DNA of 64,000 nucleotides from an uncultured Bacteroidales bacterium (GTDB lineage Bacteria > Bacteroidota > Bacteroidia > Bacteroidales > UBA3824), in NCBI GenBank assembly GCA_946624925.1, contig CAMOSO010000021.1, forward strand, positions 30 through 64,029, read 5' to 3'. The notes beneath the pieces were generated by a model. The model was not told where the DNA came from and did not search any database. It was given only the letters and a program-made list of their open reading frames with translations. The translations under genes were made by a program, and so were the position numbers. Numbering within the stretch: the first letter of the stretch is position 1; each line of letters starts with the position of its first letter. Below are positions 26,011 to 39,906 of this stretch, piece after piece.

Positions 26011-26976
26011 TTATAATTGAATGTTGTTGAGGATTCCCACAATCTTCTCGTAATCTTCGGGAGATTTGAGGTTGAAAGTGAGTTTGTAAATGCCTTTGCT
26101 GTCGAGTTTTAGATCGACCGGCACATTGAATTTCTTTGTGAAAGACTTTTTGAGTTGCTTCTGTTCGTCGGAGAGTTTTGGGCGGGCTGCCTTCACCATC
26201 AGTTTCTTGTCGTCTTGGTTATCTTCGGCGGCGGGTTCGCCGTTCTCCTCGTCCTGAGCCTTCTGTTCGAGTTCAAAGATGTATCCGTCGGGGTCTTTCA
26301 CCAACATCTCCACCTGACGCGCCGACAGTCCGTAGTTCAAGACCTTTTGGAAGAGGTCGAGCTGGAGGTCGGGGTCGTCAAGGCTGATGAGAGGACGTAT
26401 CTGACCCTCAGTGATTACCTTGTTGCGGAGAGCCGCCTGCATTTGGTCGGGCAGACGGAGAAGGCGGAGTGAATTTGCGATGGTGCTGCGCCCCTTGCCG
26501 AGCCTCGTGCTGAGTTCCTCCTGCGTGAGGTGGCACTCCTCGATAAGGCGGTTGTAGGTGATGGCAACTTCAATAGAATTGAGGTCTTCGCGCTGAATAT
26601 TCTCCACGAGAGCCATCTGCAACGCCACACTGTCGTCAGCCTCGGTGATGTACGCTGGCACTTCCGAAAGCCCCGCAATCTTGGACGCACGGTAACGCCG
26701 CTCGCCCGAAATGATTTCGTACTTGTCGTCCTTCTTTCTCAGAGTGAGCGGCTGAATGATTCCCAACGTCTTGATAGACTCGGCAAGTTCGTTGATGGCG
26801 TTTTCGTCAAAATCCGTGCGGGGCTGCGTCGGATTTGGCACGATGAGGTCGAGGGCAATCAGAGCAATGCTGCCCGTATTGACCACTTCCTCGGGTTGGT
26901 TGTTCTCAAAAGTCTTGTTGTCCTGAATAAGGAAGTCCAAACCCCTGTTGAGACCGCCTATCTTTGCTTTTGCCAT
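26011..26976 (-). CDS. parB: Chromosome partitioning protein ParB
   Basis: GLNRGLDFLI, PNPTQPRTDFDE, GIIQPLTLRK, IISGERRYRASKIAG, HTH segment LTQEELSTRLGKGRSTIANSLRLLRLP. Confidence 0.93.
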   Translation of the reverse strand: MAKAKIGGLNRGLDFLIQDNKTFENNQPEEVVNTGSIALIALDLIVPNPTQPRTDFDENAINELAESIKTLGIIQPLTLRKKDDKYEIISGERRYRASKIAGLSEVPAYITEADDSVALQMALVENIQREDLNSIEVAITYNRLIEECHLTQEELSTRLGKGRSTIANSLRLLRLPDQMQAALRNKVITEGQIRPLISLDDPDLQLDLFQKVLNYGLSARQVEMLVKDPDGYIFELEQKAQDEENGEPAAEDNQDDKKLMVKAARPKLSDEQKQLKKSFTKKFNVPVDLKLDSKGIYKLTFNLKSPEDYEKIVGILNNIQL

Positions 26977-26995: not shown

Positions 26996-27098
26996 GTTGA
27001 TAGTTTAATGTTGATAGTTGAAAGTTGAAAGTTGAAAATTGAAAGTTGAAAGATTAAAGATTTCAATTTTCAATTTCTAATTTTCAATTTCTAATTTT
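26996..27098. repeat. AT-rich heptad-repeat palindrome between parA and parB
   Basis: gttgaaa(g/a) tandem heptads on the left arm pair with tttcaattttcaatttc on the right arm (ttgaaaattgaaa / tttcaattttcaa). Confidence 0.7.
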
Positions 27099-27873
27099 TC
27101 TTAGCGAGTGCAGCGTCCTTTTCGAGGATTTCTTTGGCGAGGTTGAGATAATTGACCGCGCCGCTCGATGTGGCGTCGTACTCAATTACAGGCTTGCCGT
27201 AAGACGGAGCCTCTGAGAGACGGATATTCCTCAATATCAATGTCTTGAACACCATATCTTGGAAGTGTTGGCGCACCTGGTCCACCACTTGGTTGGAGAG
27301 GCGGAGGCGGCTGTCGTACATCGTGAGGAGGAATCCTTCGGTTTGGAGGTCGGGATTGAGCCTTGCCTGAATCATCTTGACGGTGTTGAGGAGTTTGCCA
27401 AGACCTTCGAGCGCAAAGTATTCGCACTGCACGGGAATGATGACAGCGTCGGCTGCGGTGAGGGCGTTGACGGTGAGAAGACCCAACGACGGCGAACAGT
27501 CGATGATGATGTAGTCGTACATATCGCGCACCTTGGAGATGAACGATTTGAGCCTGTACTCGCGCGATTCTACGTTAAGGAGTTCAATCTCCGCACCCAC
27601 GAGGTCGATGTGCGATGGAACGATGTCGAGGCCGTCGGTGCCGGTTTTGAGAATGATGTCCTTGGGTTCCACGTCGTCGGTGAGGGCGTCGTAGATGCTC
27701 TTTTCGATGGACTTCAACTCAAATCCAAGGCCGGAAGTACAGTTGGCCTGCGGATCGGCGTCGATGAGCAATATCTTCTTTTCCAATATCGCGAGCGACG
27801 CGCCGAGGTTGATGGATGTTGTAGTCTTGCCAACTCCACCTTTTTGGTTGGCTATTGCAAATACTCTTGACAT
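27091..27873 (-). CDS. parA: Chromosome partitioning ATPase ParA/Soj
   Basis: Deviant Walker A NQKGGVGKTTTSINLG; IIDCSPSLG; 260 aa; upstream of parB. Confidence 0.95.
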   Translation of the reverse strand: MSRVFAIANQKGGVGKTTTSINLGASLAILEKKILLIDADPQANCTSGLGFELKSIEKSIYDALTDDVEPKDIILKTGTDGLDIVPSHIDLVGAEIELLNVESREYRLKSFISKVRDMYDYIIIDCSPSLGLLTVNALTAADAVIIPVQCEYFALEGLGKLLNTVKMIQARLNPDLQTEGFLLTMYDSRLRLSNQVVDQVRQHFQDMVFKTLILRNIRLSEAPSYGKPVIEYDATSSGAVNYLNLAKEILEKDAALAKKN

Positions 27874-28109: not shown

Positions 28110-28140
28110 TTTGTTTAATCACTATTTTGATGTATATTTG
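28110..28140 (+). promoter_or_regulatory. Bacteroidetes-type promoter for the MNT/HEPN pair
   Basis: TTTG at 28110-28113, 19-nt spacer, TATATTTG at 28133-28140, 34 nt before the ATG at 28175. Confidence 0.4.
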
Positions 28141-28174
28141 CGGTCGTTATGATAATTATCACAATTACTCAACA

Positions 28175-28498
28175 ATGAAAGACCAACTTACGATAGAAAA
28201 ACTGCGCGAATTTGCAAGCAAGACAATGGAGCCGGGCAGCAAGGTTTGGCTCTACGGCTCACGTGCGCGTGGCGACTACCGCCCAAATTCTGATTGGGAT
28301 CTCCTTGTACTTATCGACAGGGACAAGGTGAGCGACGACGATTTTGACAAATTTGCCTATTCGTTTATTTATTACGGATGGCTAAACGAAGCCGACGTCA
28401 GCCCGCACATCTACACCTTCAAGGATTGGGAAATGCGGAGGATAACTCCATACTATCAAAATGTTCAACAAGATAAAAAGGTAATATATGGGACTTAG
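28175..28498 (+). CDS. Minimal nucleotidyltransferase (MNT) of an MNT/HEPN toxin-antitoxin pair
   Basis: WLYGSRARGDYRPNSDWDLLVL = GS-x(n)-D-x-D Pol-beta nucleotidyltransferase motif; overlaps the HEPN ORF by 11 nt. Confidence 0.8.
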   Translation: MKDQLTIEKLREFASKTMEPGSKVWLYGSRARGDYRPNSDWDLLVLIDRDKVSDDDFDKFAYSFIYYGWLNEADVSPHIYTFKDWEMRRITPYYQNVQQDKKVIYGT

Positions 28499-28886
28499 AG
28501 ATATTGACAGGGAAACGCTCGTAAAGATGTATTGGGAGCGTTGTGAAGAGGCATTTACCGATGCTGATGCAGCAATTGCGTCAGAACGTTGGAACAATGC
28601 TGCAAACAGGATTTATTATGCCGTATTCTACGCTGTTTGCTCATTGTTCGTAAAGGACGGGCATCCCATCAAATCACACCGTGGAGCAAAAAATATCCTT
28701 GGTCTCAATTATGTTGTTACGGGCAAAATTGATCCTGAAACCTCCAAAATATTCTCACAATTGGAGACTTTGCGAGATTTGGCGGATTACGATGTTGCGT
28801 TTTTGGCTACAAAAGAGGAGGTAATGGATTACCGCCCAAAGGCGGATGCTTTCATTGCGGCGGTGAAGGGGTTGATGAAGGAATAA
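28488..28886 (+). CDS. HEPN domain protein, partner of the MNT
   Basis: 132 aa all-helical; NRIYYAVFYAV...SHRG segment resembles the HEPN R-x4-H region; gene order and overlap are typical of type VII TA pairs. Confidence 0.75.
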   Translation: MGLRDIDRETLVKMYWERCEEAFTDADAAIASERWNNAANRIYYAVFYAVCSLFVKDGHPIKSHRGAKNILGLNYVVTGKIDPETSKIFSQLETLRDLADYDVAFLATKEEVMDYRPKADAFIAAVKGLMKE

Positions 28887-29564: not shown

Positions 29565-30893
29565 TTACTTCAACAAATATTTCCACGCTGGGACGACGTT
29601 GATTGTCTTGCCGTCAGCGGTGATTGTGCGCTCGTCATCGTCGGTTATGATGAAAAGATTTTCACAACCGGTGGCGACAGCGGCATCTGTCAGGCCGTGT
29701 ACTTCACGCTCAAAAGTCTGCGGGTTGGATATGTACCACGAAACCTGAATCAGGCTGTCAACGCAATCGCCCTTGCGAACAAGAAAATCGCACTCGGTCT
29801 TGTCCTTGTAGTAACAAACCTTGCCGTCAACACCCTTGGTACGGTAAAGGTGGAGGAATACTGTGTTTTCAAGATTTTTGCCGTAGTCGTCGCTCTGTGG
29901 CATCATCACCGCGCCGCGCAGACCATTGTCAATGCAATAGTACTTGAAAAGAGAATTTTCCTCCTTGACCATCGAATATTCAAATTTTGGCACCTTTATA
30001 AACATAAACACCGCACAGACATAGTTTGCCCATAGGTAAAGTTCATCTTTTGAAATCTTAAGCCCCTGCGACTTTATGTCGTTGAAAATAGAATTGATAG
30101 AAGTAGGCTTGGTGATGTTGTTCATTATGCGCTTTACAAAATAACGGGCGACATTGGTGTTTGTGATGCTGTAATGCTCCGCCAAATCTTTGAGCAACAT
30201 CGTATTAAAATAAGCATTAAGGATTTTCAGCCTTTCGCTTTCAGTGGCAGCCAATGCAACTTCCGGGAAACCGCCCTTGGCATTAAAATCCCTGAACGTA
30301 TTGCGCAAAACTGCCTGTTCACTCTCCAAATAGGTGTCGGTTTTGATACCTTTGAAGCGGCAGTATTCGTTGAACGAAAGCGGAAGTGTTTCGTATTCAA
30401 GCGGATAGCCGCGCAAAGCGGTTGTCAACTCGGTGGAAAGCATCGTGGCATTGCTGCCGCATACATAAATATTTTTGCAATAGTTTTTGTAAACGCGCAA
30501 CACAAAATATTCCCAATCCTTCACCAACTGTATCTCGTCGAAAAACATATAAACGTCCTTCAAAGCTATATCTGGAAACATTTCCAAATACGCCTTCAAA
30601 ATCTCGTCGAGGTTTTCGGTGCATACGCTGCGCAACCTTTCGTCGTCAAAGCCCAACCAAAGGATACGTTTTTTGTCAACGCCTTTTTCTATCAGGCGGT
30701 TGACTGTTATTTCCATCATCGACGACTTGCCGCAACGCCTCACTCCTGGAATCGTTATGATTTTCTTCCTGTCCAACGGCAGAAGTTCGTCCCTGCCGAT
30801 TACGTCAAATGGCATTTCAGCCTGTCTGAGGGCAATAATTGTCTTAAAAACTTCCTTCATATTCATAATATTGAAAATTGTTTTGCACCGCAA
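29565..30893 (-). CDS. AAA-type ATPase with DUF4143-like (PD-(D/E)xK-fold) C-terminal domain
   Basis: Walker A GVRRCGKSS, Walker B YMFFDEIQ, C-terminal ECDFLV...IQVSW. The start may be an internal ATG (30866 or 30860). Confidence 0.8.
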   Translation of the reverse strand: MRCKTIFNIMNMKEVFKTIIALRQAEMPFDVIGRDELLPLDRKKIITIPGVRRCGKSSMMEITVNRLIEKGVDKKRILWLGFDDERLRSVCTENLDEILKAYLEMFPDIALKDVYMFFDEIQLVKDWEYFVLRVYKNYCKNIYVCGSNATMLSTELTTALRGYPLEYETLPLSFNEYCRFKGIKTDTYLESEQAVLRNTFRDFNAKGGFPEVALAATESERLKILNAYFNTMLLKDLAEHYSITNTNVARYFVKRIMNNITKPTSINSIFNDIKSQGLKISKDELYLWANYVCAVFMFIKVPKFEYSMVKEENSLFKYYCIDNGLRGAVMMPQSDDYGKNLENTVFLHLYRTKGVDGKVCYYKDKTECDFLVRKGDCVDSLIQVSWYISNPQTFEREVHGLTDAAVATGCENLFIITDDDERTITADGKTINVVPAWKYLLK

Positions 30894-31006: not shown

Positions 31007-32479
31007 CTACAACATCTGCACCAACCTTCCCGCACAACCTTCGCCGTAACCGAGCCTTTCCTCGTGTACTTCGCCATAAAAAGTTATAAAAACACCGCGA
31101 TACCAGCCGTCGCTCGGGGCTGAACGTGTCCAATACCAACCGCCCGGGTATGAATTGTCAACGAGTTCGAGGTAGCGGTATGGAGCGTCGGGCAGAAATA
31201 CTGCGCCGGCCTGTTCCATACGAGCCCAGTCGTCAACAGTATAGACGTTCATAATTTCTTTCGGGTCGTCGAAATCGAACATTTCAAAGGGACGAAAATC
31301 CAAACCTTCGGGCAACGTAAACTCGTCGGGCAATATCACAAGCCCCTTACATTCGCCCACAATTTGCGCACTGCCAAATTTCTTGTCGGCATCCTTGCGC
31401 CTCTGCAACAGGTACGTCCATTCAGATTTCAACAGAACCGTCCATTCGGGACCAATGGCACAAGTGCCTGCAAGTTCGGCATCATCTATAAACAACGGTG
31501 GATAATCAAACTCATCTTCGGTAGTCTGATACGGCAATCCACCATCTTCGAACCAAGTGCCCACGCCAAAATTATCAATGCAAGTATTGTACAAACTCCA
31601 CGTCGAAAAATTGACGCCCACATCATCCACATTTACAAAACGTCCGTACTGCGAGGATGCAAAAAACCAATTTCCAAAATCGAGTTCATAACAAAGATTG
31701 CCCTTGCTGAAAAACACTTGTTTGTCCTTACCAACTGAAAAAATGCCCCTGATGCAATTGTCAGGCACACCGAAACCGCTTACCTTATAAAAATATTTGC
31801 CTTCCTGGTCGAAAGTTTCATCAAGTTGCAGATTGTCGCTTACAATCGTAGTGCCGGAGGGAATGGCAATGATAGTGCTGCCGGGCAGGTCATATTTGCA
31901 CTGCAACGCCTTGCGGGAAAGTCCGAGAGTTGCGCCGCCGTATTTGAGGTCAAAATCCACAAACACAGTCTTTTGCACAAGATTCACCGACACTCCGCTA
32001 TTGGCGTATGCAAAATCCTCACACGCCCAATATCCGTACCTCTCCAATCCCTGCGCCAACGACGACACAGCCCTCACGTCCATAAAAGGTTTGCCACCAT
32101 TATAAAGTGTGTCGGTGGAGGCGGTATTTTTCAGTGCGGCTGTCAGGCGAGTGTCGGACGTGAGAGCAACGCCAGCCCTTACCTTCAATTCACCCGAAAA
32201 AATGGCAGAGCCATTGCCCGCGCATCCGTCGCTCAATAGCACAGCGGGTTCTACGAGGATAGAATAATTGGTAACAACCACAGCGTCGCCCTCTGCAAAA
32301 GTCTTTTTCAAATCAACGCCATCCGCCTCATCGTTGCCCGGCACGATAGTCGCAGTCAATGAAAACGGTATAACATAATATTCAGGACAATCCACCGCGT
32401 CGGGGTCGTTGTCGTCGTAGCCGCAGGATGGCGAGAGGAGCGTCAACAACAAAATTAATATGTTGAAATATTTTTTCAT
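31007..32479 (-). CDS. Surface lipoprotein with FISUMP/DUF1566-like (C-type-lectin-fold) C-terminal domain
   Basis: Lipobox LLTLLSPSCG from the ATG at 32479; GIFSVGKDKQVFFSKGNLCY, PEWTVLLKSEWTYLL and AGAVFLPDAPYRY...GGWYWTRS resemble the FSxGNLQY / EW..L / LPAAGYR / YWSS motifs of that family. Confidence 0.55.
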   Translation of the reverse strand: MKKYFNILILLLTLLSPSCGYDDNDPDAVDCPEYYVIPFSLTATIVPGNDEADGVDLKKTFAEGDAVVVTNYSILVEPAVLLSDGCAGNGSAIFSGELKVRAGVALTSDTRLTAALKNTASTDTLYNGGKPFMDVRAVSSLAQGLERYGYWACEDFAYANSGVSVNLVQKTVFVDFDLKYGGATLGLSRKALQCKYDLPGSTIIAIPSGTTIVSDNLQLDETFDQEGKYFYKVSGFGVPDNCIRGIFSVGKDKQVFFSKGNLCYELDFGNWFFASSQYGRFVNVDDVGVNFSTWSLYNTCIDNFGVGTWFEDGGLPYQTTEDEFDYPPLFIDDAELAGTCAIGPEWTVLLKSEWTYLLQRRKDADKKFGSAQIVGECKGLVILPDEFTLPEGLDFRPFEMFDFDDPKEIMNVYTVDDWARMEQAGAVFLPDAPYRYLELVDNSYPGGWYWTRSAPSDGWYRGVFITFYGEVHEERLGYGEGCAGRLVQML

Positions 32480-32492
32480 AATCGGTGCTGTT

Positions 32493-33575
32493 TTAGTTTT
32501 CAATGTTGAGTTTGCTCAGGTCGTCGGTGTGGTAGATTACGAGTTGAGGCTCATCAGATTCATAATTTTCACGACGGGCAGCATATACGTCATATTCGCC
32601 GTTTGGGTCGGGCGACACATAGATTGGTATCAGACTACAACCGTTGTAATTATCGGTGGAGATTTTCGATATTACATTGCCATTGATGTCGTCAACAATA
32701 TAAACCTCACCATAACTGCCATCTTTTGCAATTTCTTGAATGACATCTCCCGTTACAATCAACTTGCCGTCGTGGACAGTGAGATTATAAATTTCGGAAT
32801 TTTCTATCTCGGCGGAGTAGATTATGCGTCCGTCGGTGGACATCTTCAAGACCGACCATTTCTCTATAAAATCAAACTCTGTATCGGGATTCGCAATGCC
32901 GCCCCTAACTATTACATAAAGATAGCCGTCGATATATCGGACAGTGTCAATCATACCTTCCAACTCGCCCTTGCCCAACTCATTGCCGTCGGCGTCATAG
33001 ATGCCAAAAAGGTTGTCGTTGAACGCAAAACATTTGTCATCGAAAGGCTGCACACGCACCCAATCGCTGTTTTTAATGACATACGGGAAATTGCTGCCAA
33101 GAGTGTGCAATACCATTTCGTTGTTCTCATTCCAATTTACATAACCTATATCGCCATTGTCGAGCAATAGAGGCTCATTGACACCGACCTCGTCATCGTC
33201 AACAATCTCACTATTGACTGTTACATTGCCGAGCCTGTCGAACTTGACAACCGTTTCCCGACATTTCGTTTCCCGATATGCCACAAGACATTCGCCCGAC
33301 GTATTGACTTGAAAATAACTGCACTCCATAACGGCTGCCAATTCAGAATACGCCACAATGCCATCGCGCATCACTTTTGCAATCTTGACACCATCGCTTT
33401 CTGATACGGGCAAAACCACAGTACCATCTGACATCGGTTTTACTAACGAAATGCTGCGGATATGCAGACCCGGCACTCTGACGGGCATACGGTGCGGGTC
33501 GGAATACGTGGTATCGTCGCAGCCAATAAGCGACATCACCAAAACAATTGTCAATATATGTATGAATGTTTTCAT
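32493..33575 (-). CDS. Lipoprotein with repeated beta-strand (propeller-like) modules
   Basis: Lipobox LVMSLIGCDD from the ATG at 33575; about 8-10 recurring D/N-G-x-hydrophobic blade-like segments (DGTVVLP, DGIVAYS, NGDIGYVNW, DGNELGKG, DGRIIYSAE, DGKLIVTGD, DGSYGEVYIV). Confidence 0.5.
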   Translation of the reverse strand: MKTFIHILTIVLVMSLIGCDDTTYSDPHRMPVRVPGLHIRSISLVKPMSDGTVVLPVSESDGVKIAKVMRDGIVAYSELAAVMECSYFQVNTSGECLVAYRETKCRETVVKFDRLGNVTVNSEIVDDDEVGVNEPLLLDNGDIGYVNWNENNEMVLHTLGSNFPYVIKNSDWVRVQPFDDKCFAFNDNLFGIYDADGNELGKGELEGMIDTVRYIDGYLYVIVRGGIANPDTEFDFIEKWSVLKMSTDGRIIYSAEIENSEIYNLTVHDGKLIVTGDVIQEIAKDGSYGEVYIVDDINGNVISKISTDNYNGCSLIPIYVSPDPNGEYDVYAARRENYESDEPQLVIYHTDDLSKLNIEN

Positions 33576-33585
33576 CGTATTGTTT

Positions 33586-34632
33586 TTAGTAACCATAATG
33601 GTGTTTAGCGATTGTGGTGTATTGGAGGTTGACCTCTACGCCGATTTTTGCGTTGTACTCCAACATACTGAACACGTCGCGGATGTAAAGATTCTTGTAC
33701 ATAAGCGTCAAGTCGTCAAATTTTTTGTCGGGGTCGTTGTAAGGCTTGATGTCATACGACACTCCAAAATCAACGAAAAAAGTAATCCGACGATGGTTGT
33801 AATTGAGCCTTGCGCCGCCGAGTACGGAATAGTTGGTGCGGTTTTTATAATCGGTGTCGTCCTTCTTGGCGGGGACTTCGGTGTAGGTGCCGATGGCGTC
33901 GGTGTAGGCGTTGGATTTGGTGGCAATTATGTATTTCAATTGTGCGCCGCCGTAGATAGACGGCACAAAATCGTTGCCCCACGGATACATCATCATTTCT
34001 GCAATCACCGGCAATTCAAAGACCTTGCAAGATTCGTTGTAGCGGAAAGTGGCAATTTCGGAACGTATCATTTTGCGCTCAATCTGATATTTGGCAAACG
34101 ACGGCGCAACACTTATCGAGAGCATCCTCTTAGGGCTGTACTCAAAACCAATCTGCGCCGAATAGCCATTGATGTCGTATTCGGGACTGCCAACAGTATC
34201 AACAATCTGGCGCATAGAATGAAGCACCGGGCGCACCATACGCACACCTGCCGCCATCCAAACCGAAAATTTTGGCATTGTATAATAATTGCCCAATGTA
34301 GCCCTGAATGGCTGAGGGTCGTCGGGCTTTATTTCATAAAACGGATATTTCTCAAAAAACAGCCGCGCCGCGCTGTCAGCCTCGCGACGGTAGCCAAAAT
34401 CCTTGTAGGCAGCAACGGTGAATTTGAGCCGATGGAGGTTTTCATCCTTGGTGAGAATGTGGCTGTCGCCGATTTGCTGCGAAAGCTGCAACACCTGGTC
34501 GTACTTGCCGGCGGAATACAAATCTTCAAGCCTTTGCAACTGGCTTAGCGTGTCGCCCTGCGCGTGGGCGGTCTGCACTGCCGAGATTGCAATAGTCATC
34601 ATCAAAAATATGTGTAAAAATCCTTTCATCAT
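33586..34632 (-). CDS. Secreted protein: N-terminal helical (TPR-like) region plus predicted outer-membrane beta-barrel
   Basis: Signal peptide MKGFLHIFLMMTIAISAVQTAHA; helical region LEDLYSAGKYDQVLQLSQQI; then alternating beta pattern ending in an aromatic residue. Confidence 0.45.
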   Translation of the reverse strand: MMKGFLHIFLMMTIAISAVQTAHAQGDTLSQLQRLEDLYSAGKYDQVLQLSQQIGDSHILTKDENLHRLKFTVAAYKDFGYRREADSAARLFFEKYPFYEIKPDDPQPFRATLGNYYTMPKFSVWMAAGVRMVRPVLHSMRQIVDTVGSPEYDINGYSAQIGFEYSPKRMLSISVAPSFAKYQIERKMIRSEIATFRYNESCKVFELPVIAEMMMYPWGNDFVPSIYGGAQLKYIIATKSNAYTDAIGTYTEVPAKKDDTDYKNRTNYSVLGGARLNYNHRRITFFVDFGVSYDIKPYNDPDKKFDDLTLMYKNLYIRDVFSMLEYNAKIGVEVNLQYTTIAKHHYGY

Positions 34633-34643
34633 CAAACAAAAAA

Positions 34644-35834
34644 CTATTTTATACAATATCCGGCAACCAAAACATCATCGAGCTGAGCCTGCGAGCCGCG
34701 CCATTTTTCAAAATGCTCATTGAGGAGCGCGTACTGCTCGGCGGCGGATTTGGTCTTGGTGTTGATATCTACTATTAGCTGGCGGAAACGGAAGTTTGTT
34801 AACTTCTGGTGGTCGTCACTAAACTGATCGGCGTATCCGTCGGAATACATATACACGTAATCGCCGCTCTGAATATCGACATCGCGATCCTCAAACGGCC
34901 TGAGCTTCGGATATATCGCAATAGGATTCTTTACCGGCTTGTATTCTGTGAGCGTAGTGCCGCGCACGTGCAACAATCCATTGTTGGCACCCGAAAACTG
35001 CATTTTGGTATTGGCGAGGTCGAGCACACACAACGCCATATCCATACCGTCGCTCTGCGTATCCACACTGAGGCTCTGTTGGAGAGTGGCGATTACCTTG
35101 CGGCGCATCTCTTCGAGGATTTGCGAGGGGCGAGTGCCGGGCGTAAATTCAACGCAAATTTCGTTGAGGAAAGCAACGCCAAGCATACTCATAAACGCGC
35201 CCGGCACGCCGTGTCCGGTGCAGTCTGCCACCGTGAAAATCACAATGTCGCCAATGCGCTTCATCCAATAAAAATCACCCGAAACTATATTCCTCGGCCT
35301 CCAAAACAGAAACACGTCGGCAAACGACTCTTTGAGGATGTATTCTGCCGGAAGGACGGCGTCCTGGATTAATTTTGCATATTCAATGCTCGATGTCACG
35401 GCGTGGTGCTGCGATTCGATTTCATTTTTGAGGGCTTGGATGTGCTGACGCTCCTTTTCGATGGCTACGCTTATGTCCCACAACACTTGGTTGCGCTCGG
35501 AGAGTTCCTGTTGCTGACCTTCGAGAGATTTCTGTTCGGCGGCGATTTTCTCCAAATCGACGGCTTGTGCTATTGATTCTGATTTTGATGGCGGCTGCGC
35601 GTCCTTGTTTCGGCGGGTCTCGTCGTCGAGGAGAGTGTTGAGTCGGCGGATTTCACTCTCACAATCGCGGATTTTGGAGGTGTATAGACCGTCCATGCGC
35701 CGCGCAGTCTTGGAGACAAACCGCCGCCGTGTCAATATCACGACTATTGCGACCACGATTGCCACCGCCGTCGTTACCATCAATATTATTTCGAGTATCG
35801 TAAAATTCATTATAGTCAGCATTAATAAAAACAT
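34644..35834 (-). CDS. Membrane-anchored PP2C/SpoIIE-family serine/threonine phosphatase with coiled coil
   Basis: N-terminal TM helix ILEIILMVTTAVAIVVAIVVIL followed by RRRF (C-terminus in the cytoplasm); coiled coil; SGDFYW...FTVADCTGHGVPGAFMSMLG, DGMDMALCV and MYSDGYADQF are SpoIIE/PP2C motifs. Confidence 0.8.
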   Translation of the reverse strand: MFLLMLTIMNFTILEIILMVTTAVAIVVAIVVILTRRRFVSKTARRMDGLYTSKIRDCESEIRRLNTLLDDETRRNKDAQPPSKSESIAQAVDLEKIAAEQKSLEGQQQELSERNQVLWDISVAIEKERQHIQALKNEIESQHHAVTSSIEYAKLIQDAVLPAEYILKESFADVFLFWRPRNIVSGDFYWMKRIGDIVIFTVADCTGHGVPGAFMSMLGVAFLNEICVEFTPGTRPSQILEEMRRKVIATLQQSLSVDTQSDGMDMALCVLDLANTKMQFSGANNGLLHVRGTTLTEYKPVKNPIAIYPKLRPFEDRDVDIQSGDYVYMYSDGYADQFSDDHQKLTNFRFRQLIVDINTKTKSAAEQYALLNEHFEKWRGSQAQLDDVLVAGYCIK

Positions 35835-38800
35835 TATTCCTGAGTGAACTCACGCCCCACAATCAAATCCCATTCGGTATCTGTGAGAGGCGGCAGGTTC
35901 ATAGCCGCAAGCGCGGACGCATACTTATTGGGGTCGGTCTCCCAATGCCTCAGACGGTTGTCGTCTGTGATGGCGTACAATGTGCCCTTATTGTCAAAAG
36001 TCATACTCTTGACCTTGCTGTTGCCGAGGCTGTGCTCCTCGATGAAAAGCGGTTTTTCCTGCAAGTCGTTGGTATTCAGGAGCGCGATGCGCTTGTCAGC
36101 CGACGAGAGCGCAAGAATGCCGGTCTCAGGGGAATAGACTGCGTGTTCAAGTTTTGCGTGTCCGCCTGCCACCCATTCGCCCTTGCTGTCGTCATTGAGA
36201 TTAATCATCTGCACACCGCCGTCGCTAAAACATACCGCGAGTTTCCTCTTGTCGGGGATTGACGCCACACAAAAAGCGTGTTGCTTTCCATTAGCGGGCA
36301 GCACGGTGGTCAGGTTGTCAGTTTTTGGATTCCATTTGAAAAGCCTGCCATCATGAGCAAGCACATAAATATTTTCGCCTTCATGACAAACTCCCGTTAC
36401 CATCGTGCCGAAATCCTTCTCGCAGGGCGTTGCAGAGCCGTCCAATGGCATCATGACCACCTTGCCGTAAGTATAAGCCACGGCGCATTGTTTGCGGTCT
36501 GGCGATTGAGAGGCTGCCACTACATAATCATCGTCGCAGGGCAATTGGGTGCGGGTGTTTCGATTGAGGTCGATGAGGAATGACTTTCGGTCTTTGCCAC
36601 AGCTCACTACGAGCGACGGCGCGGCAAAAATGGCGTTTTCCACCGGGACTTTGCTCACAAAATCAGCAATGCGCCCCGTCTGCCTTATCGTGCCATTAGG
36701 CGACACGGCGTATTGGTATGAAGAGCCGTCGTCGCCAAAAGTATTAATCGTGCCATCACTGTCTATGCTCAACGCCTTTTGCTCTCCATCGCCAAATTTC
36801 AATGGACTAATCAACTTGTTTTGTTCCATTGCAAACACCATAGCGTCGTAGAGGTCTGCGTTTTTGGATTCTTCGCCGCCCTTGCGGCTCATTTCGCAAG
36901 CGGTCTTGGCAAGGCGGAGGTTTAGCGACTTGTCCTCGTATTGGTTTTTGGCTTTCATAGCCAAAGTGTTGCAGAGCGCGACATAATAAAGGCGTCGAGC
37001 ATTGGCGTTTGCATCCTCTGTGAGATCCATTTGAGCAATGACCTTCCGACGCTGTTCTTCGGCTTCCCTGCGCCGCTCTTCGGCAATCAGGTAGTTGCGT
37101 TCAGCGCGGCGGTTGCTACTCTCCGCGCTGTCCAATGCATCCTCAGCGTCACGTCGGGCGAGTTCGGATTCCCGTTGTGCGGCAGTGGTCTTATCGAGCA
37201 ATGTTTTCACCGAGTCCAACAAATCTTGAGTCTTGATTTTCTCCTCGTTGACCTGTGTAAGACGCTTGGCTGCGAGATCCCTTTGGTAATTGGCATCCTC
37301 CTCGTTTTCTTTGGCAATCTCGGTCTGTTTCTCGGCTTTTTTCTTTTCTATCATTGCCCAATTGGAAAAAATGAGCAATCCCGCAATGAAAACGAGCAAC
37401 GCGACAATGACAATTACAATCTTCCGACGGTGCGATTTTTCGGCGGCTATGATGGCTTCTCGGCTCTGTTGGAGGTATTCGTCGCAGAGTGCCATACGAT
37501 TGGCGGCGGAGCGTATTTTCTCATTTTCAGGGCGTTGGGTGTCGTCATTTTTCAAAATCCAATACTTGTTTGGGCGGCATTTGTCGTACCACTTGCTGAA
37601 AATGGCGTAGTTGCCGGACGCGAGGAGAAATTCGGGTTTGCGGCCGCTGTCTGCCCAACGTTGCACCTGAGTATTGTAGTCATGATAGACATTGAGATTT
37701 TCATATTCCTCGTGGTTCCATTCCGAAAGCATCTTCCAGTTACGTATCAAAGCCTCGTGCGTGATGTCGAGGCAACTGTCGCCGCCGAGATACTGCGATT
37801 TGAGGTCGCCCTGCACGGCAAACGGTCTGAGGAGCGTGTTTTCCTCGGCGCGGAAGATGTTGAGCACGGCGCACACTGTGGCGGCGGTGATGTTGGGCTT
37901 GTTGATGATGCCCGTAATCTCGCTTATTGTGCTGCGGTTGCGCACTTGGCGGTTGTCGTCGATTTTTGTGAGGCTCGTGAAGGCGGTCTTCACAATCAGT
38001 TTGGATTCCTCGGGCGTGATGGTCTTGTCTGCCCAATCGGCATTTTGCATATAATAATCAAAAGCCGATTCGTATAGCGTGCCGGCGTGGGCGTTGAGGA
38101 CGTTGTTGAGGTCGGGCTTTTCAAAATATTTTTTCTGATAATCAGGCAATTGCAAGTACCAACGATTGAAATCCGCTTGTTCGGCGTCGCTGAGGATGTC
38201 TTTGGGAATGCCGGCGAGTTTTGCCAAATGAATCAGGTCGAGAGTTTCCTTGCCATTGTCGGCGGTCTTCCAAAGGAGATTGAGCGTATGTTGCAACACC
38301 GGCAACTGGTCGAAACCCGAAGTCAGATTGTTGATGAGAACCTCCGAAAGACGCGACGAAACGCTGCCGCCCGCCAGGAGTGCCGGTTGCTCAATTACTT
38401 GGAGGATTTCGGTGCGTTTCAGTTGCGGTACAAAAAATTGACTGTATGCAATAAATTCGGGCAAATCCCTGAATACGGTGCATTGCGAAATATAATCGCT
38501 CCTCATCGTAAATATCACATATACAGGCAATTGCTCCGATATTGAGAGCCTTACGGTCTCCAACAAAATATTGACGGCGGTGTAAGCCTCGTTGCTCGGG
38601 ATGCCATTATGGAAATTTTCGTTCATCGTGAAAACTTCCTCAAACTGGTCGGCGACGATGAGGAGATTTTTGCCACGGTTTTTGTCGCCGTCGGATGCGT
38701 AGAACCCCGATTTTTTGTAGATATTAATCAATCCCGAAAAACCACATTCCAATTCGTCCAAAACTTCGTCAAACGGCACTTTCAACTGTTCTGCAAGGCT

Positions 38801-39079
38801 GTGGGCAAGGCTTTCGAGGGGGTTGCGCTGCGGCTTGAAGTCGCAGAAAACCCAACTATTGTATTCCGCCATAGAAAAACCAGCGCGGATATACGGAATC
38901 ACGCCGGCATACACAATTGATGATTTGCCGTCGCCCGACGCACCCGTAATGAAAGCCATCTTGTTCTGTTCCAACATTTTGACAATCTGCCGGATGTGCA
39001 AATCTCGCCCTTTGAAGAAGATTGACTCTTCCTCGGTGAAGGGCCGAAGCCCGGGATATGGACAGATGCTGGTTTTCAT
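35834..39079 (-). CDS. nSTAND-type P-loop NTPase with internal TM helix, coiled coil and C-terminal WD40-like beta-propeller
   Basis: CPYPGLRPFTEEESIFFKGR, Walker A GASGDGKSS, Walker B LLIVADQFEEVFT, FTMRSDY. TM HRRKIVIVIVALLVFIAGLLIFSNWAMI (nt ~37352-37425). Glu/Arg-rich coiled coil. About 7 blade-like repeats (HDGRLFKWNP, FSDGGVQMINL, SADKRIALLN, DDNRLRHWE). Confidence 0.8.
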   Translation of the reverse strand: MKTSICPYPGLRPFTEEESIFFKGRDLHIRQIVKMLEQNKMAFITGASGDGKSSIVYAGVIPYIRAGFSMAEYNSWVFCDFKPQRNPLESLAHSLAEQLKVPFDEVLDELECGFSGLINIYKKSGFYASDGDKNRGKNLLIVADQFEEVFTMNENFHNGIPSNEAYTAVNILLETVRLSISEQLPVYVIFTMRSDYISQCTVFRDLPEFIAYSQFFVPQLKRTEILQVIEQPALLAGGSVSSRLSEVLINNLTSGFDQLPVLQHTLNLLWKTADNGKETLDLIHLAKLAGIPKDILSDAEQADFNRWYLQLPDYQKKYFEKPDLNNVLNAHAGTLYESAFDYYMQNADWADKTITPEESKLIVKTAFTSLTKIDDNRQVRNRSTISEITGIINKPNITAATVCAVLNIFRAEENTLLRPFAVQGDLKSQYLGGDSCLDITHEALIRNWKMLSEWNHEEYENLNVYHDYNTQVQRWADSGRKPEFLLASGNYAIFSKWYDKCRPNKYWILKNDDTQRPENEKIRSAANRMALCDEYLQQSREAIIAAEKSHRRKIVIVIVALLVFIAGLLIFSNWAMIEKKKAEKQTEIAKENEEDANYQRDLAAKRLTQVNEEKIKTQDLLDSVKTLLDKTTAAQRESELARRDAEDALDSAESSNRRAERNYLIAEERRREAEEQRRKVIAQMDLTEDANANARRLYYVALCNTLAMKAKNQYEDKSLNLRLAKTACEMSRKGGEESKNADLYDAMVFAMEQNKLISPLKFGDGEQKALSIDSDGTINTFGDDGSSYQYAVSPNGTIRQTGRIADFVSKVPVENAIFAAPSLVVSCGKDRKSFLIDLNRNTRTQLPCDDDYVVAASQSPDRKQCAVAYTYGKVVMMPLDGSATPCEKDFGTMVTGVCHEGENIYVLAHDGRLFKWNPKTDNLTTVLPANGKQHAFCVASIPDKRKLAVCFSDGGVQMINLNDDSKGEWVAGGHAKLEHAVYSPETGILALSSADKRIALLNTNDLQEKPLFIEEHSLGNSKVKSMTFDNKGTLYAITDDNRLRHWETDPNKYASALAAMNLPPLTDTEWDLIVGREFTQE

Positions 39080-39906
39080 TTTTTAAGGGTTTTGTCTAAG
39101 AATACTTTGATGTCGAGGGGGATGCGCCGCTTGTCGTTCACAGAACACTCAATGATGTTTCTCAAAACCGAAAGGTCTTCGATTTTGGCGTGGGCATTGT
39201 TGCCGACCACGAGGAGCGGTGTGCGCGAACTACTGCCGCCGCTGTCCTTCCAAATCTGACGCGCAAACGACACAGCCCAATCGCCCGCATAATTGTAATA
39301 CACAACGCCGATTTTGCTTTCGGCGAGTTGCGAAAGTACAAATGAATTGTAGTCGATGCCGCTCGAAAGGCTAACGCCGAGCCGCTGCACGCTCTGAAAA
39401 TCTTTGAGCATATTGCAGATTTCGAGCGCGGTGTCGTTGTCGAGTTCGTTGTAGAGGAAAAAAATGTCGGTAGGTTCGTTTTGGCGGTTTTCCAATTGCT
39501 TGACATTCATAATGTTGCGAATATCCTCAACGAAAACAATCGGCGACTGACGGTCGGAATACACAGTATTTTCCACGATGTCGCGGCGGATGCTGTTGAT
39601 GTATGAATGATTATCACCAATGAAGCCCGAAGGATTCCATACAAACACCTTGAAGTCGCTGCCGCACAATTCTTTAGCCTCGCGAAATTGGACACCGGCG
39701 GGCGAATCGTAACCATCGCCGCCATCGGAATATATATCCTCGCCGCCAAGTATATGTATGCTGCAATCTGCCGCCCGCATCTTGTCCGAGACCTCAATCC
39801 CGGCGTTATGAAGCACACGCGACAACCGCTTCCTCGTTGCCGCCATGTCCGTGGACACGTCAGCGAGGAACACCTTGAACTTCCTATTGTAAAGGTTGAC
39901 AAACAT
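39076..39906 (-). CDS. Cytoplasmic protein with two tandem TIR/DUF4062-like (flavodoxin-fold) modules
   Basis: 276 aa. Module 1: FKVFLADVSTDMAATRKRLSRVLHNAGIEV...ADCSIHILGG (DUF4062-like). Module 2: DIFFLYNELDNDTALEICNMLKD...IGVVYYNYAGDWAVSFARQIW (TIR_2-like but without the catalytic-type Glu). Its stop overlaps the NTPase start (ATGA). Confidence 0.5.
   Translation of the reverse strand: MFVNLYNRKFKVFLADVSTDMAATRKRLSRVLHNAGIEVSDKMRAADCSIHILGGEDIYSDGGDGYDSPAGVQFREAKELCGSDFKVFVWNPSGFIGDNHSYINSIRRDIVENTVYSDRQSPIVFVEDIRNIMNVKQLENRQNEPTDIFFLYNELDNDTALEICNMLKDFQSVQRLGVSLSSGIDYNSFVLSQLAESKIGVVYYNYAGDWAVSFARQIWKDSGGSSSRTPLLVVGNNAHAKIEDLSVLRNIIECSVNDKRRIPLDIKVFLDKTLKK

Follow-up and report, generated by a model that had tools for sequence, protein, structure and literature searches.

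A predicted transmembrane nSTAND1 NTPase with a WD40 propeller, encoded beside a PP2C phosphatase in a rumen Bacteroidales

The STAND operon and its products

The window, a stretch of 64,000 nucleotides from a rumen Bacteroidales, carries on its reverse strand an operon that encodes a STAND NTPase of 1081 aa (35834..39079), a cytoplasmic partner protein, a PP2C phosphatase and several envelope proteins (Table 1). The NTPase is a clear nSTAND1 (PF20703) protein, matched by Pfam at aa 7-302 with an E-value of 1.5e-67 and 229 bits for a cut-off of 27.1. Its Walker A motif is GASGDGKSS (aa 46-54, nt 38918-38944) and its Walker B motif is LLIVADQFEE, around D144-E148. In the C-terminal half, Pfam beta-propeller families match aa ~820-1057, and the AlphaFold (AF2) model contains a propeller at aa 767-1047, made of 27 strands with a pLDDT of about 90, which resembles RACK1-type WD40 structures in Foldseek (target-normalised TM-score of about 0.8). 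The linker before it forms helices 718-733 and 741-753.

Table 1. Features of the STAND operon, in the order of transcription (positions in the window)
Feature	Positions	Strand	Basis
276-aa protein, predicted cytoplasmic; two alpha/beta domains, the first DUF4062/TIR-like	39076..39906	-	AF2, fold matches, fusions
STAND aa 1-517, nSTAND1 NTPase with helical and winged-helix module, predicted cytoplasmic	37529..39079	-	PF20703
STAND aa 518-553, predicted cytoplasmic helix ending in the R/K cluster HRRK	37421..37528	-	AF2 helix, fixed length, basic cluster
STAND aa 554-576, single predicted transmembrane helix IVIVIVALLVFIAGLLIFSNWAM	37352..37420	-	hydrophobicity, conservation, charge bias
STAND aa 577-710, Glu/Arg-rich heptad-repeat stalk, predicted periplasmic	36950..37351	-	AF2, heptad pattern
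STAND aa 711-760, small conserved helical linker joining stalk to propeller	36800..36949	-	AF2, conservation
STAND aa 761-1050, 7-bladed WD40 beta-propeller	35930..36799	-	Pfam, AF2, Foldseek
STAND aa 1051-1081, helical tail and stop codon	35834..35929	-	AF2, sequence
N-terminal TM anchor, cytoplasmic coiled coil and PP2C (SpoIIE-type) phosphatase	34644..35834	-	Pfam SpoIIE
Secreted protein, helical N-terminal domain and outer-membrane beta-barrel	33586..34656	-	Pfam OMP_b-brl_2, N-terminus
367-aa lipoprotein, lipobox LIGC	32493..33596	-	N-terminal sequence
498-aa lipoprotein	31007..32503	-	N-terminal sequence ending SPSC

The gene of the 276-aa protein is found upstream of 49 of the 66 STAND copies, and in the window its stop codon and the start of the STAND gene share an ATGA. 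The protein has no hydrophobic segment and was modelled as two alpha/beta domains (pLDDT 82.8), which in their fold weakly resemble TIR domains and tandem receiver domains. DUF4062 is matched below threshold in 16 of 48 homologues, and the window's own protein also lies below the Pfam threshold; fused N-terminally to related STANDs, the same module exceeds it. Across the family, the catalytic E-Y position of the DUF4062-like domain reads Q-[YF], as assigned by motif alignment and profile end coordinates, and this partner is probably non-catalytic.

At its other end, the STAND gene has a stop which overlaps the first ATG of the PP2C ORF (TAATG), and the 276-aa, STAND and PP2C genes are predicted to be translationally coupled through these ATGA and TAATG overlaps. 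The gene caller of the source contig places the PP2C start 8 codons later. A PP2C gene lies downstream on the same strand, within 4.5 kb, for 49 of 55 STAND copies. The window's phosphatase scores 67.2 bits against the Pfam SpoIIE cut-off of 25, and its translation contains the metal-binding motifs DCTGHG, SDGY and LDDV. Its membrane segment at aa ~16-34 (Kyte-Doolittle (KD) mean of 3.22) is followed by RRRFVSKTARR, which places the C-terminus inside.

The barrel protein has a signal-peptide-like N-terminus ending in AHAQ and reaches 27.6 bits for a Pfam OMP_b-brl_2 cut-off of 27. Homologues accompany 37 of 55 STAND copies, hence the barrel cannot be obligatory; in 25 they are encoded between the STAND and PP2C genes. 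Neither lipoprotein has a Pfam match. Homologues of the 367-aa lipoprotein, at about 27-48% identity, occupy the matching position in related loci, while those of the 498-aa lipoprotein lie downstream in the closest loci and are duplicated in some related ones. The flanking genes are housekeeping, for example of aminotransferase and amidotransferase type, and a HEPN/nucleotidyltransferase pair is located about 7 kb away from the operon.

The membrane segment and its predicted topology

The hydrophobic string IVIVIVALLVFIAGLLIFSNWAM separates the NTPase module from the stalk and the propeller. Its best 19-residue KD mean is 3.29, against 1.29 for the runner-up elsewhere in the protein, and an estimated Hessa-type insertion-energy sum is -5.3 kcal/mol for the best 19-mer and +7.7 for the next best. 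A hydrophobicity scan of the whole 1081 aa revealed neither an N-terminal signal peptide nor a second hydrophobic segment. With this single segment, the two halves of the protein must lie on opposite sides of the membrane if it inserts. A preliminary description of the locus had pointed to one strongly hydrophobic 23-residue segment, followed by a Glu/Arg-rich coiled coil and about seven propeller blades. All three were recovered, although its position for the segment (aa ~553-575, nt ~37352-37425) was off by one residue and five bases. In the AlphaFold model, which it had suggested together with a survey of homologues, the segment is followed by a helix of 125 residues (586-710) with many Glu and Arg and by a propeller of seven blades; membrane topology is not assignable by AF2.

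The survey found exactly one such segment, at the matching position, in 118 of 120 close homologues (41-100% identity), the exceptions being a 770-aa protein that aligns to just 36% of the query and another of 1128 aa. Among 135 distant representatives of the wider clade, 127 likewise keep one segment directly after the NTPase module. The uncharged core has a median length of 23 aa (range 20-29 residues) and a KD of up to 3.3; its length and hydrophobicity are conserved although the sequence varies (46% identity). Such a segment characterises the family and is not a chance occurrence.

Basic residues occur on both sides of the segment in the window protein (...EKSHRRK before it and IEKKKAEK... 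after it), where K+R are equal on the two flanks (5 and 5). Given basic residues on both sides (HRRK / KKKAEK), the preliminary description, which had proposed a periplasmic sensor and a cytoplasmic NTPase, did not consider the topology obvious. The bias becomes clear only across the family: among 113 homologues, the 15-residue N-flank has a mean of 5.5 K+R and a net charge of +3.7, against 3.1 and -0.9 for the C-flank, and the N-in/C-out orientation is favoured in 112. Charge bias also favours N-in in 123 of the 127 distant representatives. In addition, in a sister clade with a C-terminal, peptidoglycan-binding LysM domain, the membrane segment is located between nSTAND1 and WD40-LysM in 37 of 37 proteins, and the STAND operon encodes an outer-membrane beta-barrel and lipoproteins. 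The charge bias, the LysM domains and the envelope partners support the proposed placement, and the ambiguity of the flanks is resolved at the level of the family.

From its sequence and that of its relatives, the protein is most likely a bitopic inner-membrane STAND NTPase, and, as far as topology alone is concerned, it is very likely that residues 1-553 are cytoplasmic, 554-576 cross the inner membrane and 577-1081 are periplasmic. It would be very surprising if the segment were instead buried, re-entrant or a peripheral anchor, with both halves in the cytoplasm: all characterised bacterial STANDs with a canonical WD40 propeller are known to have it in the cytoplasm, the window protein has balanced flanks and AF2 does not settle topology, but the long uncharged core with its strongly negative insertion energy, the lack of a second segment for a hairpin, the conservation of hydrophobicity and length over sequence, the charge asymmetry of the homologues and the LysM beyond the segment in the relatives all argue against it. 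The propeller is presumed to be a periplasmic sensor or docking domain. There is a precedent for periplasmic WD40 domains in Bacteroidota, namely PorE, a type IX secretion system protein (PMC12773672).

A transmembrane receptor and its alternatives

AF2 predicts an unbroken helix, 518-582, which passes through the membrane segment, and the single stalk helix 586-710, whose low pLDDT (about 45-70) is expected because a coiled coil was modelled as a monomer. Among 63 aligned homologues, the pre-membrane helix is exactly 36 aa long and the membrane segment up to W574 is 21 aa long in all 63. The stalk, from W574 to L706, measures 133 aa in 57, 140 in 5 and 126 in 1, hence its indels are whole heptads only. 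It has Ala or another small residue at every seventh position and a weak hydrophobic core, with Ala/Thr/Val at one heptad position and mostly polar residues at the other; about 133 aa would span about 20 nm if fully helical. The fixed lengths and the heptad-only changes suggest a register-preserving signalling rod.

Conservation is highest in the N-module (71% mean identity), where many residues are invariant, G46-S54, D144, E147, E148 and R193 among them. The linker (59%) exceeds both the stalk and the propeller, the latter being variable (41%). Genomes carry 3-5 or more paralogues, and in tandem paralogues the N-modules are 82% identical and the propellers 33%. Length and architecture are very uniform among family members. 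The N-module is matched by 3545 50%-identity clusters at E<=1e-30. The family of the window protein is large and uncharacterised, and its partner genes are conserved.

The conserved N-module, the diverging propellers and the number of paralogues follow the logic of a receptor, and we favour a transmembrane STAND receptor, with a probability of roughly 0.55 for the whole model including its partner output. The low pLDDT and weak hydrophobic core of the stalk, the balanced flanks of the window protein and the incomplete co-occurrence of the barrel count against it. We infer its ligand, signal direction and output as follows. The variable propeller would bind a periplasmic or envelope-associated cue, possibly close to or at the peptidoglycan or outer membrane, and by way of the barrel protein and lipoproteins encoded alongside. 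From there a conformational signal would travel along the continuous, register-conserved helix formed by the stalk, the membrane segment and the 36-residue cytoplasmic helix to the NTPase, which may then change its nucleotide state or oligomerise as STANDs do. Output would pass through the probably non-catalytic DUF4062/TIR-like protein, which occupies the “effector/adaptor” position at the N-terminus of a STAND, and through the membrane-anchored cytoplasmic PP2C, which would dephosphorylate a putative target.

With the same topology, the protein could belong to an anti-invader immune module, in which the propeller detects phage or foreign components crossing the envelope, the STAND oligomerises and the DUF4062/TIR-like protein triggers an abortive or protective response. 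Several points favour this reading: a layout of STAND, DUF4062 and WD40 like that of conflict systems, the recent demonstration that DUF4062 proteins act as anti-phage NADases (PMC13174449; 10.64898/2026.06.25.731849), the diversification of sensor domains between the several paralogues of a genome, earlier suggestions that transmembrane STANDs read periplasmic signals during defence (10.1101/2022.07.19.500537; PMC10907252) and the nearby HEPN/nucleotidyltransferase pair. However, PADLOC gave no meaningful match for any protein of the operon, the predicted catalytic Glu is replaced by Gln throughout the family, the enzyme that most constantly accompanies the STAND is a PP2C phosphatase and not a toxic effector, the flanking genes are housekeeping and the family is very uniform in length and architecture. 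An immune role is unlikely, and the framing of the protein as an immune sensor is not established: going by the conserved partners, signalling through a PP2C phosphatase is at least as well indicated as defence.

It is more doubtful still that the same topology works inside-out, with cytoplasmic NTP hydrolysis driving a rigid stalk and propeller to work on the outer-membrane barrel, the lipoproteins or the peptidoglycan, as in the mechanotransmission of FtsEX-EnvC or MacB. The register-conserved continuous helix from NTPase to periplasmic domain, the co-encoded envelope proteins, the peptidoglycan contact implied by the LysM of the sister proteins and the FtsX-EnvC coiled-coil precedent (PMC7668044) would suit such a machine. 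On the other hand, STAND NTPases are generally known as slow switches or oligomerisation hubs and not as motors (Leipe et al. 2004, cited in PMC13174449), a strongly diversifying propeller on a conserved cytoplasmic module suits a sensor better than a tool, and the cytoplasmic PP2C and TIR-like partner would be left without a role.

Relation to known systems

The nSTAND1 clade was named by Kaur, Iyer, Burroughs and Aravind (eLife 2021, PMC8195603). The window NTPase is a member by its Pfam score, Walker motifs and helical module, and shares the logic of effector/adaptor, NTPase and repeat sensor. In the parts of that paper drawn on here, however, the clade is described in soluble conflict-system proteins, whereas here a membrane helix and a heptad stalk lie between the NTPase and the WD40 domain, the N-terminal effector/adaptor module has a gene of its own, translationally coupled to that of the STAND, and a PP2C phosphatase is a constant partner. 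STANDs with membrane segments which read intramembrane or periplasmic signals were already proposed, with bacterial NACHT proteins carrying “TM region” C-termini (Kibby et al., 10.1101/2022.07.19.500537) and DGR-diversified targets whose lectin domains are predicted to be periplasmic (Dore et al., PNAS 2024, PMC10907252). Unlike the window protein, these belong to the NACHT group and typically have several TM segments, sometimes inside the NTPase, and in one DGR target the whole NACHT and lectin unit is predicted to be periplasmic; their topologies are predicted, and none combines one TM segment, a phased stalk and WD40 (with or without LysM). A literature search found transmembrane STANDs proposed only in general terms and no prior description of a transmembrane nSTAND1-stalk-WD40 family.

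The order DUF4062/TIR-like, STAND NTPase and WD40 is that of the DUF4062-NACHT-WD40 proteins human TEP1, NWD1 and NWD2 and of the bacterial defence proteins Swarozyc and Evangelion (PMC13174449; 10.64898/2026.06.25.731849), and relatives of the window gene encode it as a single polypeptide. Those proteins are soluble, whereas here the NTPase and WD40 domain are separated by a membrane helix. They also differ in their DUF4062, an NADase whose catalytic Glu lies in an E-Y motif; here the motif reads Q-[YF], and the window's 276-aa protein falls below the Pfam threshold.

PASTA-type kinases such as PknB are paired with a PP2C phosphatase. Like the proposed receptor, these receptor Ser/Thr kinases (PknB, PMC3145798) combine a cytoplasmic signalling domain that uses nucleotides with a single membrane helix and an extracytoplasmic repeat sensor; the latter binds the cell wall, as LysM does in the sister proteins of the window gene. 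The signalling domains are non-homologous, a Hanks kinase there and a STAND P-loop NTPase here, and the window operon has no kinase gene.

Finally, the full-length model aligns with Apaf-1 (PDB 3sfz) over both the STAND and WD40 parts, and the sensor-controlled oligomerisation of the NTPase in Apaf-1 is presumed for the window protein. Apaf-1 differs in being soluble, with propellers that fold back on the NTPase. If a membrane lies between NTPase and propeller, such fold-back is impossible, hence autoinhibition and activation would have to pass along the helix.

Domain architecture and membrane topology

The STAND protein is encoded in a single reading frame of 1081 aa, of which aa 7-302 match the Pfam family nSTAND1 (PF20703) with an E-value of 1.5e-67 and 229.4 bits (cut-off 27.1). 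Its Walker A motif, GASGDGKSS (aa 46-54), and its Walker B motif, LLIVADQFEE, containing D144, E147 and E148, are invariant in 63 homologues. By these motifs and this score, the P-loop is intact and the NTPase is a bona fide member of the nSTAND1 clade (PMC8195603). In the Pfam scan only nSTAND1 and a sub-threshold nSTAND3 were listed as NTPase families, the NACHT domain being absent, while no NCBIfam model matched the protein and a PDB sequence search returned weak WD40 matches only. Several beta-propeller families of Pfam match aa ~820-1057. The AlphaFold2 model (63 homologues in the alignment, mean pLDDT 78.8) is that of a monomer and carries no information on membranes; it has a helix (518-582) continuous through the hydrophobic segment, a single helix of 125 residues (586-710) predicted at low confidence, then a pair of short linker helices and, at a pLDDT of about 90, a propeller of seven blades (767-1047). 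Foldseek relates the propeller to RACK1-type WD40 propellers, with a target-normalised TM-score of about 0.8, and aligns the whole chain with Apaf-1. The tripartite STAND layout is complete, with a C-terminal WD40 sensor, the NTPase and an effector or adaptor provided by the overlapping upstream gene and fused in relatives. The protein differs from the standard layout by the membrane helix lying between the NTPase and the sensor.

Pfam, AlphaFold2 and Foldseek thus recover every element named in the preliminary description, namely the nSTAND1/P-loop region, the hydrophobic segment, the helical stalk and the propeller; only the coordinates of the segment had to be shifted, by one residue and five bases, to aa 554-576 for the string IVIVIVALLVFIAGLLIFSNWAM. 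The 19-residue Kyte-Doolittle (KD) mean of this segment is 3.29, against 1.29 for the next most hydrophobic stretch of the protein, and a simple sum over the best 19-mer, using biological-scale values that are reportedly those of the 2005 paper of Hessa, gives -5.3 kcal/mol against +7.7 for the runner-up. A homologue search over 5.8 billion proteins yielded more than 2000 relatives, of which the best 120 (41-100% identity) belong to metagenome-assembled genomes of Bacteroidales and almost all have 1080-1099 aa. Exactly one segment with a KD above 1.8 is found at the same position in 118 of these 120; of the two exceptions, one has 1128 aa and the other, of 770 aa, spans only 36% of the query. 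When the N-terminal 545 residues, i.e., the N-module made of the NTPase and the helical part preceding the membrane segment, were searched against 1.84 billion cluster representatives (50%-identity clusters), 3545 clusters were obtained at E<=1e-30. Nearly all of the best 150 representatives carry the helix and, among the matches listed, one such segment directly follows the N-module in 127 of the 135 representatives of at least 700 aa, including proteins with N-terminal extensions of about 300 residues and proteins of 1320-1600 aa. Hence the survey of nSTAND homologues proposed earlier establishes an internal membrane helix as the rule in this nSTAND1 branch. In a large sister class (representatives P0134, P0153, P0218, P0221 and P0458-P0490), the nSTAND1-TM proteins measure about 1320-1560 aa, and the 750 or so residues or more that follow the helix are devoid of any Pfam match, presumably forming an extracytoplasmic domain.

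With a single hydrophobic segment and no signal sequence at its N-terminus, the STAND protein must have its two halves on opposite sides of the membrane, provided that the segment inserts, and the NTPase depends on cytoplasmic nucleotide. The orientation had been regarded as unclear owing to basic residues on both flanks. This is true of the window protein taken alone (5 K+R on each side), but at the level of the family the charge bias is clear. Across 113 full-length homologues, whose uncharged core has a median length of 23 residues, the N-flank averages 5.5 K+R and a net charge of +3.7, while the C-flank averages 3.1 K+R and a net charge of -0.9; the N-flank is the more positive in 112 of them and in 123 of 127 distant representatives. 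LysM fusions provide a second line of sequence evidence, independent of the charge bias. The relative P0226 consists of an N-terminal extension, nSTAND1, TM, WD40 and LysM (Pfam LysM, E 2e-13), and a search with it retrieved dozens of clusters (90% identity) whose precomputed domains include LysM; several of these clusters are named 'LysM peptidoglycan-binding domain-containing protein' by NCBI. A single hydrophobic segment separates nSTAND1 from WD40-LysM in all 37 LysM-bearing proteins. LysM is an extracytoplasmic cell-wall-binding module, so that the half following the membrane helix should be outside the cytoplasm in these relatives. The secreted envelope proteins encoded in the operon support a periplasmic C-terminal half as a third line. 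Periplasmic WD40 domains also have a precedent in Bacteroidota, namely PorE of the type IX secretion system (PMC12773672).

The charge bias, the position of LysM and the envelope proteins of the operon all agree with the coiled coil and propeller being periplasmic, as had been proposed, and we predict that the STAND protein is bitopic with an N-in/C-out orientation (probability of about 0.85). A hydrophobic segment that does not span the membrane, leaving the propeller in the cytoplasm, is very improbable in view of the single segment, the family-wide charge asymmetry and the LysM fusions.

Stalk length and propeller divergence

The helical parts on either side of the membrane are strikingly constant in length. 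In 63 of 63 homologues, the cytoplasmic helix preceding the membrane segment has 36 residues and the segment itself, up to the near-invariant W574, has 21. The stalk from W574 to L706 measures 133 residues in 57 homologues, 140 in 5 and 126 in 1, and therefore varies by whole heptads only. Within the heptad, one position is nearly always occupied by Ala or a different small residue. By analogy with the signalling helices of transmembrane receptors, a length and register that are kept while the sequence is free would be expected of a phase-keeping helix. If fully helical, 133 residues would extend over about 20 nm, a length comparable to the width of the periplasm. The AlphaFold2 confidence of the stalk is low and its heptad core is weakly hydrophobic. 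An antiparallel hairpin was considered, for which the Ala-rich heptads would speak; against it, AlphaFold2 produces one continuous helix, at the low confidence already noted.

Conservation is very uneven along the protein, with a mean identity to the window protein of 71% in the N-module, 41% in the propeller and merely 34% in the stalk. In one genome per species, 484 encoded relatives were detected, of which the best 80 belong almost entirely to Bacteroidales or to further members of the Bacteroidota, sampled from rumen, gut and sediment; a genome typically has three to five loci, or more. In a goat-gut Bacteroidales genome (locus L002, 1020-14807, the same region as L050), two complete cassettes stand in tandem, each comprising a STAND gene, a barrel protein, a lipoprotein and a PP2C. 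The N-modules of the two STAND copies are 82% identical and their propellers only 33%. At the sequence level, a conserved core with divergent propellers is the pattern of a conserved signalling core equipped with diversified sensors.

Operon and conserved partners

The STAND gene is the second of six genes arranged head to tail on the minus strand.

Positions of the operon genes and of other features in the window
Feature	Position (nt)	Strand	Remarks
Gene 1, 276-aa protein	39076-39906	-	no hydrophobic segment; two alpha/beta domains
Overlap of genes 1 and 2	39076-39079	-	ATGA; 276-aa stop / STAND start
Gene 2, STAND protein	35834..39079	-	nSTAND1, TM, stalk, WD40
Hydrophobic segment of the STAND protein	37352-37420	-	aa 554-576
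Overlap of genes 2 and 3	35832-35836	-	TAATG; STAND stop / first ATG of the PP2C ORF
Gene 3, PP2C		-	TM anchor, coiled coil, PP2C; SpoIIE (PF07228) 67.2 bits, cut-off 25
Gene 4, barrel protein		-	signal peptide, helical N-domain, outer-membrane beta-barrel; OMP_b-brl_2 27.6 bits, cut-off 27
Gene 5, 367-aa lipoprotein	32493-33596	-	no Pfam family
Gene 6, 498-aa lipoprotein	31007-32503	-	no Pfam family
396-aa ORF	33358-34548	+	antisense to barrel-protein and lipoprotein genes
HEPN and nucleotidyltransferase pair; ParA and ParB genes; AAA_14/DUF4143 ATPase	~28130-28886, 27091-27873, 26011-26976, 29565-30893	-	just downstream of the operon
623-aa protein	48620-50491	+	Cache and chemotaxis signalling domains

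The overlapping start and stop codons suggest that the 276-aa, STAND and PP2C genes are translationally coupled. In the source contig, the gene caller places the start of the PP2C gene 8 codons further downstream. The partnership is conserved among the 75 related loci compared. A homologue of the 276-aa protein is encoded directly upstream in 49 of the 66 STAND copies with enough flank. A PP2C homologue lies at most 4.5 kb downstream on the same strand in 49 of 55 copies, either immediately adjacent (24) or with the barrel gene in between (25), and a barrel-protein homologue accompanies 37 of the 55. The antisense ORF listed in the table is uncalled by the gene caller of the source contig and is most likely spurious.

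The 276-aa partner was modelled by AlphaFold2 with a pLDDT of 82.8. Foldseek returned weak and mixed matches to receiver (in tandem), TIR and Ras-like folds (E about 1e-3), which support a flavodoxin/TIR-like fold and no finer assignment. The window protein matches no Pfam family, including DUF4062 (PF13271) at E<=1, and retrieved nothing from PDB sequences, either as a single sequence or as a profile; DUF4062 appears sub-threshold in 16 of its 48 homologues (best E 1.6e-4). With a profile of the family, however, this module is detected as an N-terminal fusion in nSTAND1-TM-WD40(-LysM) relatives (representatives P0196, P0202, P0226 and P0203), at E-values down to 4e-38. The first domain of these fused modules passes the DUF4062 threshold (28.8-34.6 bits, cut-off 24.7), so that the 276-aa protein is to be seen as a divergent relative of DUF4062 and not as a scored member. 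From the fusions it also follows that this partner fills the classical N-terminal effector/adaptor slot of a STAND protein, split off as a separate gene. DUF4062 was recently shown to be a family of TIR-like NADases whose catalytic Glu belongs to an E-Y motif; the family includes the defence proteins Swarozyc and Evangelion as well as human TEP1 and recurs in a DUF4062-NACHT-WD40 architecture (PMC13174449; 10.64898/2026.06.25.731849; 2026 preprints). The E-Y position, as located by the S-x-[AT]-x-x-[EQ]-[YF] context and the end coordinates of the profile and not from a residue-level profile alignment, corresponds to Q72-F73 in the window protein and to Q-[YF] in all 31 aligned relatives, fused and unfused. 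The TIR-like domain is therefore unlikely to be a canonical NADase and is more likely an adaptor or assembly module.

The PP2C scores as a member of PF07228 and retains the metal-binding Asp motifs DCTGHG, SDGY and LDDV. Its membrane anchor is followed by RRRFVSKTARR, and equally basic stretches occur in four homologues, so that its coiled coil and catalytic domain should be cytoplasmic. A pairing of this coiled coil with the periplasmic stalk was rejected for the same reason, the coiled coil following a membrane helix with a strongly basic C-flank. An assignment to the biofilm phosphatase SiaA (equivalog NF038263) was likewise discarded (166.7 bits, cut-off 700), the PP2C half alone being aligned. 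Relaxed Pfam scans of both lipoproteins and their homologues in the related loci L002 and L004 gave no informative match. Asp-rich stretches directly follow the lipobox Cys in both lipoproteins and their homologues (L004, 14799-17814), e.g., CDDTT, CGYDDNDPD and CKKDD. They resemble the surface-export signal of Bacteroidota lipoproteins, and the lipoproteins may thus be surface-exposed.

Putative receptor function and neighbouring genes

A transmembrane STAND receptor is the best-supported reading of a family whose domain order, single conserved membrane helix, charge asymmetry, LysM fusions, register-conserved helix and conserved partners are evident from sequence and comparison; as with the topology, its basis is entirely computational (sequence, comparison and models). 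The propeller would bind an envelope or periplasmic cue, possibly through the barrel protein and the lipoproteins, and the signal would run inward along the helix. The NTPase would then switch or oligomerise, with an output through the TIR-like partner and the PP2C.

The same architecture might instead serve anti-invader defence, with which both the architecture and the diversification of the sensor would fit. This appears unlikely given the Gln at the catalytic position, the phosphatase partner and a PADLOC scan of all six operon proteins that gave no meaningful match (none at E<=0.01 for the STAND and 276-aa proteins, and weak coiled-coil-type matches only, at E>=0.0012, for the PP2C N-terminus). 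A signal of the opposite direction, i.e., inside-out mechanotransmission to the envelope, seems more doubtful still.

The receptor reading can be tentatively extended to a trans-envelope receptor class that has gone unrecognised, which we consider possible, at odds well below even. In it, a STAND NTPase would follow the wiring of an animal Toll-like receptor, with the sensor repeats outside, connected by one membrane helix to a TIR-like adaptor inside, and a heptad-phased stalk of ~20 nm would position the diversifying WD40 propeller level with the peptidoglycan or outer membrane. Cues would be relayed by the dedicated barrel protein and surface lipoproteins, and the output would be a PP2C rather than a kinase, sigma factor or suicide effector. 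Each of the several copies per rumen or gut Bacteroidales genome would presumably be tuned to a different cue.

STAND/NLR-type NTPases of bacteria and eukaryotes are seen as cytosolic sensors, in which the repeat domain is folded back on the NTPase. A membrane between sensor and NTPase across a large conserved clade would imply that STAND switches can also monitor the extracytoplasmic space, and that control of the NTPase by the sensor has to pass through a transmembrane helix and not through direct contact. The family moreover brings together a STAND switch, a PP2C phosphatase and a DUF4062/TIR-like module that is probably non-catalytic, three elements that had not been linked before. In Bacteroidales of the rumen and gut, to whose ecology the sensing of glycans, neighbours or phages at the envelope is central, the family is abundant and present in several copies. 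The nearest functional analogue is found in the PASTA receptor kinases and their PP2C phosphatases, while Toll-like receptors are analogous in layout (sensor outside, TIR inside); in neither case is the signalling domain homologous. Transmembrane regions in some bacterial STANDs, with possible periplasmic sensing, were already mentioned for NACHT proteins (10.1101/2022.07.19.500537), and the same idea was voiced for STAND targets diversified by DGRs (PMC10907252). Our literature search found such general statements on transmembrane STANDs only, and no described nSTAND1-TM-WD40 or STAND-PP2C system in Bacteroidota, nor a description of the heptad-phased stalk or of the link to a PP2C and an outer-membrane barrel for the nSTAND1-TM-stalk-WD40 family.

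Just downstream of the operon, the window encodes a toxin-antitoxin-like pair, ParA and ParB and an AAA_14/DUF4143 ATPase. The window also contains, according to the annotation of the source contig, a protein that combines Cache sensor domains with a methyl-accepting chemotaxis signalling domain, an unexpected gene type in a Bacteroidales genome.
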